From an uncultured Haloferula sp. (lineage in GTDB: Bacteria > Verrucomicrobiota > Verrucomicrobiia > Verrucomicrobiales > Akkermansiaceae): 64,000 nt of DNA. Under the pieces are notes generated by a model. It made no database searches. It was not told the DNA's origin and was given only the letters and a program-made list of their open reading frames with translations. Made by a program: the position numbers and the translations under genes. Where the stretch lies: the NCBI GenBank assembly GCA_965652295.1, contig CBFGTS010000001.1, positions 192,001 through 256,000 of the forward strand, written 5' to 3'. Positions 6,255-31,134 of the stretch are shown one piece after another (within the stretch, counting starts at the first letter, position 1; each line of letters begins with the position of its first letter).

Positions 6255-7160
6255 TCAACCCCGCGCCACGGCAGCCAGCGCGGCGAGAACGGCCTTCTGG
6301 GCGTGGAGGCGGTTCTCGGCTTGCTGGAAGATCGTGTCGGCGTGGGCTTCGAGGACCTCCTCGGTGATCTCCTTGCCGCGGTAGGCGGGGAGGCAGTGGA
6401 GTACGATGTGCTCCGTAGCCGCGTTCGCGAGCAGCTCCGCATTCACCTGATAGGGGCCGAAGGCGGCTTCCTTTTCAGCCTGACCCTCCTGGCCCATGGA
6501 AAGCCAGACGTCGGTGTTGATGACGTGGGCTCCCTCGACGGCCTCGGCGGGATCGGGGGTGACGCTGATGTTCGGCGCGTTGAGCTCCTGCAGGAACGCG
6601 GCGGTGGGTGCGTAGTCGGGCGGGCAGGCGACGGCGAAGTCGAAGCCGAGCTTTTTGGCGGCCCACATCCAGGAAATGGTCATGTTCGAGAAGCCATCGC
6701 CGACCCACGCGATCTTCTTGCCTTCCCAGCCGCCGAGCTTTTCCCGGATGGTGAGAAGGTCGGCGAGGATCTGGCAGGGATGCTCGTCGTCGGTCAGGGC
6801 ATTGATGGTGGGAATGCCGGAGTAGTTCGCGAAGTCCACGACGTCCTGCTGGGCGAAGGTCCGGATGACGGCACCATGGACCATGCGCCCGAGGACGCGG
6901 GCGGTGTCGATGATCGGTTCGCCGCGGCCGAGCTGGATGTCGTTCTTGGAAAGGAACATGGGCGCACCGCCGAGTTCGCGGATGCCGACTTCGAAGGAGA
7001 CGCGCGTGCGGGTGGATGACTTGGTGAAAATCATCGCCCAGGTCTGGCCTTCGAGGGGCTTGCCATCGCGGCCGCGCTGCCGCTTGAGCAGCTCGGCGCT
7101 GTCGAGCAGGTGGACGAGTTCCTTGTCGGTGAGTTCTTCGATGGAAAGGAGATTTTTCAT
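6255..7160 (-). CDS. argF: Ornithine carbamoyltransferase
   Basis: SSTRTRVSFE, HPCQ, HCLP, AENRLH. Confidence 0.95.
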   Translation of the reverse strand: MKNLLSIEELTDKELVHLLDSAELLKRQRGRDGKPLEGQTWAMIFTKSSTRTRVSFEVGIRELGGAPMFLSKNDIQLGRGEPIIDTARVLGRMVHGAVIRTFAQQDVVDFANYSGIPTINALTDDEHPCQILADLLTIREKLGGWEGKKIAWVGDGFSNMTISWMWAAKKLGFDFAVACPPDYAPTAAFLQELNAPNISVTPDPAEAVEGAHVINTDVWLSMGQEGQAEKEAAFGPYQVNAELLANAATEHIVLHCLPAYRGKEITEEVLEAHADTIFQQAENRLHAQKAVLAALAAVARG

Positions 7161-8395
7161 GACTGGGAAAGTAAGGAGTCGAGAGTGATGCGGACGATTT
7201 CGAGAGCTTCGGAAACCTCCGTTTCGGTGACGTTGAGGGGTGGCAGGAGCCGCAAGGTTACGGGGCCGGCGGGCGGGGCGAGGAGGCCGTGGGTGATGAG
7301 TTCAGCGGAGAGGTGGAGGGCGGGAAGCTTGCCCTCGGGAACACTCATTTTCGAAACATCGAGGCCGATGCCGATGAGCAGTCCGAGGCCGCGGACGCCG
7401 GTGACGAGAGGATGGTTCCATGAGGAAACGGTCTCGTGGATTTGCGTGGCGCGGGCGCGGACGTTGTCGATGAGCTGCAACTCCGAGATTTCCCGGAGCA
7501 CGGCCAGGGCGGCGGCGCAGGCGAGCGGGCTGCCGCCGTAGGTGGTGCCGTGGGAGCCGGGACCCATGAGGGCGGAAAGAGGCTTTTCGCCATCGATCAA
7601 CCGGTCGGACAGCCAGAAGGCACCGATCGGGAAACCGCCGCCGAGGCCCTTGGCCCAGCTGATGCCGTCGGGCTCAAGTTCCGGAGCGATCTCGCGCCAG
7701 GCCATGGGATCACCGCAGCGGCCGAAACCGGTCTGGACTTCGTCGAGCAGCAGCAGCAGGTCGTGCTTTTCGCAGAGCGCCTTGACGCCGCGGAGGAACT
7801 CGGGTGTGGCGACGTTGACGCCGCCCTCGCCTTGCACGGGTTCGAGCAGGATGGCGGCGGTTTCCGGCTGGATGGCAGCGGCGAGCGCGTCGAGGTCGTT
7901 GTAGGGCAGGTGGCGGAAGCCGGGCAGCAGGGGATCGAAGCCCTCCTTCACCTTGTCCTGCCCGGTGGCGTTGATGCCGCCGAGGGTCCGGCCGTGGAAG
8001 GATTGTGTGAAACTAAGAACCTCGTACCTCGGCGAGCCATCGGGTTGGGGCCGGGCGTGACCGAACCTGCGCGCGGACTTGATGAGTCCGTCGTTCGACT
8101 CGGCCCCGGAGTTGGAGAAGAAGACTTTCCCGGGGAGCTTCACGTGGTTCTCGACGATGAGGCGGGCGAGTTCTTCCTGCTGCGGGATGTGATAGAGATT
8201 GGAGCAGTGAATGAGGGTCGCGGCCTGTTGCGTGATGGCATCGACCAACGACTTCGGCGAGTGGCCGAGGGCGCAGACGGCGATGCCGGAGCAGAAGTCG
8301 AGGTAGCTCTTGCCCGAGTCGTCCCACACTCGGGGACCCTCGCCTTTGATGAGGGTGAGCGGGAAACGGCCGTAGGTCTGGAGGATGTGAGACAT
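7157..8395 (-). CDS. argD: Acetylornithine aminotransferase
   Basis: SFHGRT, EPVQGEGG, DEVQTGFGR, AKGLGGG, HGTTYGG; overlaps argF start. Confidence 0.92.
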   Translation of the reverse strand: MSHILQTYGRFPLTLIKGEGPRVWDDSGKSYLDFCSGIAVCALGHSPKSLVDAITQQAATLIHCSNLYHIPQQEELARLIVENHVKLPGKVFFSNSGAESNDGLIKSARRFGHARPQPDGSPRYEVLSFTQSFHGRTLGGINATGQDKVKEGFDPLLPGFRHLPYNDLDALAAAIQPETAAILLEPVQGEGGVNVATPEFLRGVKALCEKHDLLLLLDEVQTGFGRCGDPMAWREIAPELEPDGISWAKGLGGGFPIGAFWLSDRLIDGEKPLSALMGPGSHGTTYGGSPLACAAALAVLREISELQLIDNVRARATQIHETVSSWNHPLVTGVRGLGLLIGIGLDVSKMSVPEGKLPALHLSAELITHGLLAPPAGPVTLRLLPPLNVTETEVSEALEIVRITLDSLLSQS

Positions 8396-8411
8396 GGGAA
8401 AGGGGCGGGGT

Positions 8412-9311
8412 TTAGGGATTGACGGAGGCTTTTACAAGCCGCGGCTTTGGGGTGGGATGGGCGACGACGCGCCAGGTGGCGACGAGGGTCAGAGCCCCGC
8501 CGGCGATTTCGGTAAGAGTGAAAATCTCATCGAAGAACAGCCAGCCACCGAGAGCGGTGACGAGCGGAAGGATCATCTGGATCGAGGAACCGCGGGCGAC
8601 CGAGAGCGTGCGGTAGGCGTGGGTCATGGAAAGCTGTGCGGCGGCGACGAGGACCGCGGCCAGTACCATGAGCCAGAAGGCTCCGCCGGGCAGCGTGGCC
8701 GACGGCACGGCGGCGGGTCCGGCCGCGAAGATGGCGCTGGCGAGACATTGCGACGCGTAGATGGTGGCGGTGTGCTCGCTGTGCCGGAGCTGGCGGATCA
8801 GGGTGATGACCGCGCCGGCCGCCACGGCTCCGGCGAGCGCCAGGACGTCGTATTTCCCGATGGAGAAAGTCAGGCCGCCGCTGAGGAAAACGAGCAGCCC
8901 GGCGAAGCCCGCGAACATCCACGACCATGACCGGACGGTCAGCGTTTCCTTGAGCCACAGCGAGGCGAAGAGGCAACCGAAGATCGGGTAGCTGAGATTG
9001 ATGATGACCGCGCGTCCGGCGCCGAGATGGACGACGGTGATGTAGAATGCGAGGATGCCGAATCCGCCGATGAGGCCGCGGGCGATCAGCAGCGGCCGGG
9101 TGAAGAGGTGCCGCGGCTGAAAACCCTTTTTCAGGAAGAACGCGCTGACGATGGCGAGCCCGACGACGCCGCGGAAAAGCGAGGCCACCCAGCCATCGGC
9201 CGCGGGCACGGCGAGGGCAATGCCGCGGATCATCAGCGCGTTCACGGCGAAGGCGACGACGGAACCGAGCATCAGGGTGATGCCGGCCTTTTCGGTCGGG
9301 GTGGTGGTCAT
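8412..9311 (-). CDS. DMT/EamA family transporter, first gene of the DMT-argD-argF operon
   Basis: About 10 hydrophobic segments in two EamA-like halves; start at MTTTPTEK. Confidence 0.85.
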   Translation of the reverse strand: MTTTPTEKAGITLMLGSVVAFAVNALMIRGIALAVPAADGWVASLFRGVVGLAIVSAFFLKKGFQPRHLFTRPLLIARGLIGGFGILAFYITVVHLGAGRAVIINLSYPIFGCLFASLWLKETLTVRSWSWMFAGFAGLLVFLSGGLTFSIGKYDVLALAGAVAAGAVITLIRQLRHSEHTATIYASQCLASAIFAAGPAAVPSATLPGGAFWLMVLAAVLVAAAQLSMTHAYRTLSVARGSSIQMILPLVTALGGWLFFDEIFTLTEIAGGALTLVATWRVVAHPTPKPRLVKASVNP

Positions 9312-9346
9312 GGTTTCGGCGGGCGCCGCACAGGTCCGGTCGGGGT

Positions 9347-9384
9347 AAAAACAAAAAACCCGGCGGACCATGGAGGCGCCGGGT
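9347..9384 (-). terminator. Intrinsic terminator inside the 5' leader of the DMT-argD-argF operon (attenuator)
   Basis: Minus strand ACCCGGCG-11nt-CGCCGGGT followed by TTTTTGTTTTT, ending about 35 nt before the DMT start. Confidence 0.85.
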
Positions 9385-9416
9385 GGGTGGTGGTTCGGTG
9401 GTATCCTTGATTCCCA

Positions 9417-9485
9417 TCACACGCCGGCAGCTCCGAGCCAAATGGCACGGGCGACGAGACGACGGAGATGGAGTTTATGGGTCAA
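9417..9485 (-). CDS. Putative 22-aa leader peptide MTHKLHLRRLVARAIWLGAAGV
   Basis: TTG start, TGA stop, three Arg codons all CGT; lies between a sigma70-like promoter and the leader terminator. Confidence 0.55.
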   Translation of the reverse strand: MTHKLHLRRLVARAIWLGAAGV

Positions 9486-9495
9486 GGCGGGGAGT

Positions 9496-9524
9496 GGGAT
9501 AGTCGGGCGACGGGGTTGTGGCAA
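9496..9524 (-). promoter_or_regulatory. Sigma70-like promoter of the arg leader
   Basis: TTGCCA-17nt-TATCCC on the minus strand. Confidence 0.5.
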
Positions 9525-9564
9525 GGGCGGAGTGGAGAATCTGGGAGATGGCGACGGGCTGTAG

Positions 9565-9644
9565 GTAGTTCCCCCTTCAGGGGGTGGCGGAGAGCAGGGC
9601 TGCCGGTTCGCTCGGGCAGCGCAGCCCCCTGAAGGGGGAACTAC
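9565..9644. repeat. GTAG-type REP doublet (REPIN-like)
   Basis: Perfect 20-bp inverted pair GTAGTTCCCCCTTCAGGGGG (9565-9584) / CCCCCTGAAGGGGGAACTAC (9625-9644); each arm is internally palindromic. Confidence 0.8.
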
Positions 9645-9663
9645 GTGCGGGTGATGGCGGGCT

Positions 9664-10569
9664 TCAAGGGACGGGAGTGCTTTGCAAGGCGGAGCGGATC
9701 AGCGGTTCGGGATCGGAGGCGTCGGCGGGGAGGAGGCGGTGGCGGAGAATGGCGGGGAAGACGCGCTGGACGTGGTCGGGATGGACGGCGGCGGCACCCT
9801 CCATGAAGGCGGCGGCACGGGCGGCCTGCATTACGGCGAGAGCGGCGCGGATGGAAACGGTGGCGTCGCTGCCGGCGAGGCGACGCAGAGTCTCACAAAG
9901 TTCGGTGATGTAGCCGGCGATCGTTTCGGATACGGGAACGCGGCGGACCTGCTGTTGAAGGTCGAGGATTTCCGCGGGATCCAGCAGCGCCTCAAGGTTG
10001 ACGTCGAGCTTGCCGGCGGCGTGCTCCAGCAGGATGCGGTTCTGGGTTTCCGCGGCCGGGAGCCCCATGTGAATGGAGAGCAGGAAGCGATCGAGCTGCG
10101 GCTCAGGCAGCGGGAAGGTGCCGTGGAGGTCGGTGTCGTTGCGGGTGGCGATGACGAAAAACGGTTCGGGCAGCGGTCGCGTGACGCCATCGAGCGTGAC
10201 TTGATGCTCGTTCATGCACTCGAGCAGCGCGCTCTGGACGCGGGGCGAGGTGCGGTTGATCTCATCGGCCAGCAGGCAGTGGGTGAAAACCGGGCCGGGG
10301 ATGAACTCGAAGTCGCCGCGGTCCATGCGGTAGAGCGAGTAGCCGAGGAGGTCGGCGGGAAGCAGGTCGGGCGTGAACTGGACGCGCTTGAAACGACCGC
10401 CGGTGGAGCTGGCGAGAGTGTGGGCGAGCGAGGTTTTTCCAATGCCGGGCGGTCCCTCGATCAACACGTGTCCGCGGGCCAGCAGGGCGATGAGGAGGAG
10501 CGACGCGGCATCCTCCGAGCCGAGTACGGTGGCGGTGAGACGATCGTGGAGGGTGTGGATGGACTGCAT
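9664..10569 (-). CDS. MoxR family AAA+ ATPase
   Basis: GHVLIEGPPGIGKT, RVQFTPDLLPAD, LADEINR, FPLPEPQLDRF. Confidence 0.92.
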   Translation of the reverse strand: MQSIHTLHDRLTATVLGSEDAASLLLIALLARGHVLIEGPPGIGKTSLAHTLASSTGGRFKRVQFTPDLLPADLLGYSLYRMDRGDFEFIPGPVFTHCLLADEINRTSPRVQSALLECMNEHQVTLDGVTRPLPEPFFVIATRNDTDLHGTFPLPEPQLDRFLLSIHMGLPAAETQNRILLEHAAGKLDVNLEALLDPAEILDLQQQVRRVPVSETIAGYITELCETLRRLAGSDATVSIRAALAVMQAARAAAFMEGAAAVHPDHVQRVFPAILRHRLLPADASDPEPLIRSALQSTPVP

Positions 10570-10585
10570 GGGCGGGGCGGGCGAG

Positions 10586-11170
10586 CTAAGGCTCGCGGTC
10601 CAATTCGGAAGCAACCTTTTTGATGGCCTCGGGGTAGAGCCGGTGTTCCTCGACCTGGATCCGGGCGTGGAGGGTCTCGGCCGTATCGCCGGGCAAGACC
10701 GGGACTTTGGCCTGGAGAATGGCGGGGCCGGTATCCATCCCGGCATCGACGTAGTGGACGGTGCAGCCGCTTTCGGTGACCCCGGCTTCGATGGCCTGCT
10801 GCCAGGCGGCGACGCCGGGAAACGCCGGCAGAAGGGCGGGGTGGATGTTCAGGATGCGGTCGGGAAAGGCGTCGAGCAGCGGTTGCTTCACGAGGCGCAT
10901 GAAGCCGGCCAGGCAAACAAGATCACACCCGGCGGCTTTCAGTGCGGCGGCGGTTTCATGCTGCGCTTCATCGGGAAACTTCGTTTTGAAACCCCGGCAG
11001 TCGATGAGTTGCGTGGGGACGCCGTGTTTTGCGGCCCGTTCAAGGATGTAGGCGTCCGGAACGTCGGACATGACGAGGGCGATCTCGGCATCGAGAGTGC
11101 CGGCTGCGATCGCGTCGAGGATGGCCTGCATGTTCGAGCCGGAGCCGGAGCCGAGAATGCCAATGCGCAT
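10586..11170 (-). CDS. purN: Phosphoribosylglycinamide formyltransferase
   Basis: GSGSGSNMQAI, LAGFMR, NIHPALLP, GCTVHYVD. Confidence 0.95.
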   Translation of the reverse strand: MRIGILGSGSGSNMQAILDAIAAGTLDAEIALVMSDVPDAYILERAAKHGVPTQLIDCRGFKTKFPDEAQHETAAALKAAGCDLVCLAGFMRLVKQPLLDAFPDRILNIHPALLPAFPGVAAWQQAIEAGVTESGCTVHYVDAGMDTGPAILQAKVPVLPGDTAETLHARIQVEEHRLYPEAIKKVASELDREP

Positions 11171-30598: not shown

Positions 30599-31134
30599 TG
30601 TTCGGCGAAATCGACGATCCGTTCGCCGCTCCCGGCGATGACCACTGGATGCGCCAGGCGCTGAGGGAGGCAGAGCGGGCGTATGAGGCGACCGAGGTGC
30701 CGATCGGCTGCGTGATCGTGCGGGAAGGTCGAGTGATCGGCCGCGCGTGGAATCAGGTGGAGACGCTGAAAGACGCCACCGCTCACGCGGAAATGCTGGC
30801 CCTGACGGCGGCGCAGCAGGCGCTGGGCGATTGGCGGCTGGAGGGCTGCACGCTCTATGTGACCAAGGAGCCATGCCCGATGTGCGCCGGGGCGATCGTC
30901 CACTGCCGGCCGGACCGGGTGGTGTTCGGCTGCCCGGATGACAAGGGCGGGGCGGCGGGAGGTTGGATCAATCTGCTCGATTCGAACCCACCGCTCAATC
31001 ATCGCTGCGAGGTGACGAGCGGGGTGCTGGGTGAGGAAAGCCTGGCGCTGTTGCAGGGTTTTTTCCGGGAGGCGAGGGCGAAAAAAAAGGCCCTGAGGGA
31101 TGGGGCGAAACTCCCGCCCGATGAGCCGGTGTGA
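30598..31134 (+). CDS. tadA: tRNA adenosine(34) deaminase
   Basis: EVPIG, TAHAEM, EPCPMCAGA. Confidence 0.92.
   Translation: MFGEIDDPFAAPGDDHWMRQALREAERAYEATEVPIGCVIVREGRVIGRAWNQVETLKDATAHAEMLALTAAQQALGDWRLEGCTLYVTKEPCPMCAGAIVHCRPDRVVFGCPDDKGGAAGGWINLLDSNPPLNHRCEVTSGVLGEESLALLQGFFREARAKKKALRDGAKLPPDEPV

Follow-up and report, generated by a model that had tools for sequence, protein, structure and literature searches.

The window, a 64,000-nucleotide stretch of an uncultured Haloferula genome, carries on its minus strand a gene for an EamA/DMT-family membrane transporter (8412..9311, PF00892), followed by argD, encoding acetylornithine transaminase (7157..8395, NF002325 over cut-off), and argF, encoding ornithine carbamoyltransferase (6255..7160, TIGR00658 over cut-off). 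The transporter gene is the first one after a leader with an upstream open reading frame (uORF) and an intrinsic terminator. The EamA protein is 82% identical to its H. luteola homolog. Its profile matched the LicB and 5i20 structures weakly, the homologs bear generic DMT names with no resistance annotation, and the ESM Atlas returned generic EamA clusters only.

Organization of the leader

The leader begins with a sigma70-type promoter-like element, TTGCCA-17-TATCCC (9496..9524, minus strand), recognized in the sequence and sharing its architecture with relatives. The -35-like TTGCCA occupies 9524-9519 and is separated by a 17-nt spacer from the -10-like TATCCC at 9501-9496. The uORF (9417..9485, minus strand; defined by the sequence and by 126 homologous uORFs) starts 10 nt past the TATCCC, and the element predicts a leader of ~3 nt ahead of it, i.e. 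a near-leaderless transcript. The 22 codons run from a TTG start to a TGA stop and include Arg CGT at positions 8 and 9 (9464-9459) and 13 (9449-9447), and Trp TGG at position 16 (9440-9438). Folding places a protector hairpin (segments 1:2, approximately 9413..9472, minus strand) within the uORF, with tip pairs that are kept in relatives. Segment 2, the 5' strand of the predicted antiterminator (9414..9434, minus strand), corresponds to the 3' end of the uORF with its stop codon, while segment 3, the 3' strand (9372..9390, minus strand), includes the 5' arm of the terminator. The intrinsic terminator (9347..9384, minus strand) is a 3:4 hairpin with a GC-rich stem at 9384-9358 and a U tract that runs to 9347; the fold has an energy of -17.3 kcal/mol (z -2.66), and its pairs are kept in relatives. 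The promoter, the TTG-started ORF with its three CGT codons, and the terminator with a U tract ahead of the first gene had all been named in the original prediction. All three are present as described, and the promoter architecture recurs in 30/30 relatives.

A strict consensus scanner listed neither the promoter nor the terminator of the leader, and the weak TTG start of the uORF has no Shine-Dalgarno site. Such a start is plausible because near-leaderless starts are common in this genome, where the ATG starts of long ORFs peak 6-10 nt behind promoter-like elements. Elements of this kind lie 6-10 nt ahead of many start codons, those of argG and trpE included (whole genome; L031, L374), and near-leaderless mRNAs seem, from sequence, to be common in the lineage.

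Just upstream of the leader promoter there is a near-perfect inverted repeat of ~20 bp (9565-9644), with similar elements in the same place in L003, L004, and L044. By its appearance it may be either a repeat of the REP type or a terminator belonging to the upstream ATPase gene. This AAA-type ATPase gene and purN lie ahead of the leader (9664-11170, minus strand), in an order shared with one genome of the sister subgroup considered below, so the conserved synteny takes in genes unrelated to arginine.

Conservation of the uORF and its link to the EamA gene

EamA orthologs are present in 36/61 relatives, and the EamA profile matches 205/401 genomes of the order and 24/301 of the phylum. Each of the 30 EamA loci delivered for the genus contains a uORF of 20-24 codons in the same place, 6-10 nt behind a promoter-like element; the terminator is present in 13 of these loci and absent from 17. 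Outside the genus, where the choice of uORFs followed promoter score and position and was in part made by eye, one was found in 46/60 loci of other genera and families and in 10/20 loci of other orders (14/60 and 10/20 yielded none). The promoter-score rule was passed by 56 of 80 further loci and failed by 24, five known positives among them, and one pick (L295) was dropped. The final set consists of 126 distinct uORFs of 20-33 codons, found phylum-wide; since the genomes are related, these counts are not independent of one another. The start codons are ATG in 77, GTG in 38, and TTG in 11 uORFs, and the stop codons TGA in 97, TAA in 17, and TAG in 12, while length differences keep the reading frame. 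The comparative evidence, drawn from sequence, that the uORF is translated is strong.

A covariance model of the leader finds a single copy in the genome (E 6e-33; the next best match is at 0.36). The leader is beyond chance, because the uORF is found in all the genus loci and the model recovers this copy alone. With the same approach, no copy was detected before other arg genes in 141 family genomes. Among 21 weak-match loci inspected in that search, three are true leaders (L333, L340, L345), and the others were set aside as ordinary terminators. The 54 matches of a metagenome pattern scan were treated as chance, none of them having a terminator or a matching gene. In Rfam, the region 8500-10500 gave three chance miRNA matches on the upstream palindrome and nothing else at E up to 5, and five relative loci gave no match at the gathering score; no riboswitch, T-box, or leader family was matched, an outcome in line with the original prediction, which had raised a known riboswitch as a possible objection. 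Scans of the genome for further attenuators returned 12 and 14 candidates, of which this leader alone was credible by eye.

The attenuator had been assigned to the transporter, argD, and argF together. These genes do follow the leader, but the leader travels with EamA, and argD-argF have a promoter-like element of their own. This second element, TTGTAA-17-TAAACC (8409..8437, minus strand, from sequence), lies within the EamA 3' end and immediately precedes argD. Its counterparts precede argD directly in 29/29 loci, as compared with 0/232 windows inside argD, a control that is lenient, since coding DNA avoids TA. The argD gene is directly behind EamA in 29/30 genus loci; outside the genus the linkage is observed in g24, g26, g32, g36, and one g21 genome, and in 7/7 g26 loci the EamA stop overlaps the argD start. 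The linkage may represent a single ancestral event. In families f3 and f5, argD was found behind EamA in 0/33 loci, nor was it found there in g30 or most of g21, and a scan of 49 genes downstream of EamA gave no arg or trp gene; most relatives have the leader and EamA with no arg gene following. Because the leader follows EamA and argD has its own promoter-like element, the primary target of the leader is, judged from sequence, the EamA transporter gene, and argD-argF would receive added read-through. No such leader was seen by eye at argC, argG, or argH, and no Trp leader was found at trpE in 5/5 genomes.

Other genes are found at this position as well. In genus g30 (L107-L110) a class II aminoacyl-tRNA synthetase of the Asp/Lys/Asn type is located behind EamA, in one genome (L167) queG, and in several f12 genomes (L166, L168, L170, L172, L174, L177) a HAD hydrolase. 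In one f5 genome (L135:3819-4151) an argF-like gene ends ~460 nt upstream of EamA on the same strand.

In three genomes (G031, G096, and G114) the EamA gene is deleted or decayed, and promoter, uORF, and terminator are kept before argD. Aligned with an intact relative, G114 has no gap in the uORF but 22 in the EamA remnant. The leader is directly before argD in 1/40 loci from family genomes, and 4/20 stretches from genus g36 and its neighbors contain the leader with an intact or decayed EamA. The EamA gene is also frameshifted or decayed in L081 (G022), L039 (G030), L074 (G198), L367, and L368. Of the genomes with a decayed EamA, G022, G096, and G114 still have an intact leader; none was seen in G030 or G198.

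Predicted folding of the leader RNA

The untranslated leader is predicted to fold as protector plus terminator, with an energy of -50.2 kcal/mol (z -2.49). The protector hairpin (-28.3 kcal/mol, z -1.92), which was absent from the original prediction, has its tip on the Ala14-Ile15-Trp16 codons. The antiterminator is formed by 9434-9414 with 9390-9372, at -25.8 to -27 kcal/mol (z about -1.5). The mutual exclusion claimed for terminator and antiterminator is borne out by the computed folds, in which protector, antiterminator, and terminator exclude each other. The search for covarying stems gave a divided result. Ten terminator pairs are kept in 10-13/13 leaders and the protector tip pairs in 12-13/13, with two double-sided changes, but the antiterminator helix has no covariation beyond shuffles. 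This helix is paired in 72% of cells, compared with 44-54% when slid, and beats 95% of shuffles in 2/13 leaders only.

The effect of a ribosome was computed in two ways. In masked-ribosome equilibrium folding of 15 leaders, with the ribosome edge at +12, 11/15 lose the terminator at one codon or another, always ahead of the Trp codon, and 4/15 never do; a stall at Trp leaves it formed in all 15. A co-transcriptional proxy scores the firmness with which the 5' arm of the terminator is held while the 3' arm has yet to be made; by this measure a switch of 3 kcal/mol or more is seen in 21/22 terminator-type leaders, which come from three lineages. For the present leader the proxy predicts read-through at codons 8-16, a wide range of about nine codons, and none at codon 17. 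The reading as a ribosome-mediated attenuator, in which a stalled ribosome frees the antiterminator, is well supported by the conservation of frame, start, and stop, the alternation of the three helices, masked-ribosome folding that predicts read-through upon a stall, and the failure to find an Rfam match or an ArgR. The collapse of the read-through window at codon 17 agrees with the further claim that a ribosome reaching the stop lets the terminator form.

In the sister subgroup (L014-L030, L081) no U-tract terminator is present behind the uORF, and a five-segment pairing cascade leads to a hairpin that covers the start codon of EamA. Of the 18 leaders without a terminator in this subgroup, 11 are predicted to open the EamA start with the ribosome at the stop and none to do so upon a mid-uORF stall, whereas a ribosome at the stop is predicted to give the off state in terminator-type and f5 leaders; in these models the polarity of the sister subgroup is reversed with respect to the terminator-type leaders. 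A second, Shine-Dalgarno-led ORF has its start codon behind GGAG in 16/18 of the subgroup and its end near the EamA start in ~12. Folding gave no switch of the Shine-Dalgarno site of this ORF and no inversion of polarity by it. Family f5 has, as its output, a hairpin covering the EamA start, which a mid-uORF stall opens in 6/14 leaders and closes in none, and which a stall five codons ahead of the stop opens in ~10/14. Three output structures (terminator, start-codon hairpin, and long-range pairing) are found, all sited around the 3' end of the uORF.

In the proposed mechanism, translation would be initiated at the TTG of a near-leaderless transcript, as conservation of start, stop, and frame suggests. 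When the ribosome is absent, protector and terminator are computed to form. A ribosome at codons 8-16 would break the protector and let segment 2 take the terminator 5' arm before the 3' arm is made; with the antiterminator in place, RNA polymerase would continue into the EamA gene and from there into argD-argF. Once the ribosome has reached codon 17 or a later one, it would mask segment 2, and the terminator would form. The least secure step is the cause of the stall, which may be that the single tRNA-Arg(ACG) decodes CGU/CGC/CGA slowly when arginine is limiting. The argD-argF genes would keep a basal promoter, and read-through from the switch would come on top of it, without gating these genes.

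The signal and related systems

Arginine sensing, as originally proposed, found partial support. Arg is present in 126/126 uORFs and lies inside the predicted read-through window in 22/22 terminator-type leaders at all three ribosome-edge settings (compare Ala 21, Leu 17-20, and Trp 7-16), and CGA is favored. In contrast, the 395 Arg codons are near the 345 expected from base composition (1.15x), three Arg in the present uORF have P = 0.43 from base composition alone, and the single Trp is the most conserved residue. RNA structure can also explain Arg codons, which are often paired within the protector. Four uORFs have one Arg, and 11/126 lack CGU/CGC/CGA in codons 2-14. The 30 genus uORFs contain 105 Arg codons, every one of them CGU/CGC/CGA, the codons read by tRNA-Arg(ACG), which is present in the genome. 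In codons 2-14, CGA accounts for 42% of 236 CGN codons, as compared with 5-10% for A3 in the other seven four-fold boxes, and genome-wide it makes up 5% of Arg codons. The 10 uORFs from other orders have no CGA in frame, and Trp persists in them. In the his leader of Salmonella, CGA and CGU are decoded slowly and relieve attenuation (PMC4046918).

The avoidance of CGG was downgraded as proof of Arg sensing after a G3 control: G3 is avoided in all boxes in the 5' half of the uORFs, the avoidance of CGG is partly this general effect, and the g36 uORFs use CGG. Lysine was rejected as the signal, being absent in 7/18 sister-subgroup uORFs, and so was, by eye, a universal basic-X-basic macrolide motif. 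Regarding tRNAs, a tRNA-Leu with anticodon AAG was located at G000:C2:214625-214709 and no tRNA-Leu(GAG) was found, so the former would be a second TadA substrate beside tRNA-Arg(ACG) (end of contig C7). A TadA-like tRNA adenosine deaminase domain, the best of six deaminase matches, is encoded at 30637-30933 (plus strand), and a second TadA-like match is on contig C23.

ArgR is the textbook regulator of bacterial arg genes. The check for argR suggested with the original prediction gave none: ArgR (PF01316) was found neither in this 98% complete genome nor in the genus genomes (0/35) nor in 3 genomes outside the genus, while 9/14 controls were positive. Because Arg is inside the read-through window in every terminator-type leader, in-frame CGA is favored, ArgR was not found in any genome of the genus set, and the leader is kept after EamA loss, arginine is placed narrowly ahead of tryptophan as the signal of the switch. 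This preference is tentative and falls somewhat short of an even chance.

The same attenuator might instead sense, through the single Trp codon 16, a shortage of Trp-tRNA or of its modification, with EamA serving tryptophan or a related compound and the position of argD-argF being a synteny accident of one family. Trp is found in 121/126 uORFs, against 0.33 expected (132 codons vs 52 expected, 2.5x), it is the only nearly invariant column of a peptide alignment with a mean column identity of 20%, and it is kept in differing RNA contexts across orders. It lies within the read-through window in 16/22 leaders at edge +12, as the last codon in 9, and in most f5 leaders the EamA start is opened by a stall five codons upstream of the stop. 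The leader travels with EamA and not with arg genes, and a YddG model was weakly matched by 3/19 EamA members. However, Trp is a single codon in 111/126 uORFs, five otherwise intact leaders are without it (one with a compensated hairpin tip), at edge +15 it is within the window in 7/22 only, and at equilibrium a Trp stall does not displace the terminator. Neither is there a trp gene among the downstream genes scanned, and a Trp sensor does not explain why genomes that lost EamA keep the leader ahead of argD. On balance, a Trp sensor is rather unlikely. We rate somewhat lower still the possibility that the RNA switch responds to general translation stress, a ribosome-targeting drug, the state of tRNA modification, or peptide-ligand arrest, and induces a broad exporter or importer in the manner of toiL, ermC, or whiB7. 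There is no run of any cognate codon, the read-through window is wide, the peptides are basic and hydrophobic with Asp, Glu, and Tyr depleted to 0.07-0.16x, and the target is a drug/metabolite transporter. Two codons, CGA and TGG, stand out in frame, the lineage reads CGH and CUH codons with A34 tRNAs and has TadA, and a single uORF, toiL, can sense many stalls (PMC12121999). The peptide identity of ~20% and the lack of a match to leader or arrest peptides in NCBIfam and PDB speak against peptide arrest, an arrest at or past codon 17 would leave the terminator of this leader formed, and neither the argD link nor the gain of Arg codons in G031 is accounted for.

A further reading, which is very improbable, has a terminator that is either constitutive or under protein control, and a uORF that accompanies a conserved GC-rich RNA structure as a by-product. 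The antiterminator has no covariation above shuffles, the TTG start is weak and has no Shine-Dalgarno site, and the strict scanner misses the promoter, all of which would suit such a structure. Yet three start and three stop codons interchange while length changes keep the frame, TGG and CGA are in excess in frame over the other two frames of the 126 uORFs, and three different output structures are all sited around the uORF 3' end. That the leader is a real, ribosome-controlled switch is very probable, because across the 126 uORFs the frame is preserved even though one start or stop codon is exchanged for another.

With arginine as the preferred signal, a broader history can be drawn: an ancient leader switch of EamA in Verrucomicrobiota would have been captured before argD-argF, where it would act as a true arginine-tRNA attenuator where ArgR is lacking, kept after loss of the transporter and retuned on argD in one genome. 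In that genome, G031, the one of the genus without EamA, the uORF has six Arg codons, and the predicted read-through window covers codons 9-13, four of them Arg, with Trp outside it. We consider this history doubtful as a whole. If Arg is the signal, the leader would fill the arginine gap among attenuators and explain part of arginine control where ArgR is not found. Whatever the signal, the uORF would be a class-wide switch with at least three interchangeable outputs, in a lineage in which no attenuator was seen at trpE, argC, argG, or argH. The trigger, once found, would name the substrate of a widespread, uncharacterized EamA family, and the natural EamA-loss genomes make the retuning of the leader open to testing.

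To our knowledge, the arginine pathway is the textbook case for which no leader-peptide attenuator of transcription is known. The literature searched described neither this leader nor any transcription attenuator for arginine; older comparative attenuator surveys may bear on novelty. Within PMC8632094 and PMC2965389, searches by term turned up neither Verrucomicrobia nor EamA. A conserved leader-peptide attenuator for an EamA transporter has apparently not been described previously. As with E. coli trpL, hisL, leuL, thrL, and pheL (PMC3783181, PMC2965389), a uORF overlaps the protector, antiterminator and terminator are alternatives, and a stall leads to read-through. Unlike in that class, this leader has no run of cognate codons, the family has a near-leaderless TTG/GTG/ATG start and a transporter as first target, the biosynthetic genes behind it come with a promoter-like element of their own, and in relatives the terminator gives way to outputs that sequester a start codon. 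Like toiL (PMC12121999), bmrB, mef/msr, and whiB7 leaders, it would couple uORF stalling to a transporter or stress gene via alternative folds; unlike them, it is followed by arg genes in one family, and its EamA homologs have no resistance names. With TnaC, SpeFL, and the fungal arginine attenuator peptide it shares a uORF of 20-34 codons and a link to arginine or ornithine metabolism and, for TnaC and the fungal peptide, the conserved Trp. Those three peptides depend on a conserved sequence that includes acidic residues, and at high ligand they arrest the ribosome close to the stop. The present peptide, unlike them, is poorly conserved and without acidic residues, and a ribosome near its stop predicts termination. 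The S. aureus rbfL leader (PMC13009471) differs from this one in having 8 codons with AGA/AGG and blocking a downstream ribosome-binding site, so that a stall is off; it controls a biofilm regulator rather than transporter or arg genes, and does so without a terminator switch. In the literature searched, rbfL is the nearest arginine-sensing bacterial uORF to this leader, in that arginine limitation is sensed through slow Arg codons in a bacterial uORF, the role for which the leader described here is a candidate.
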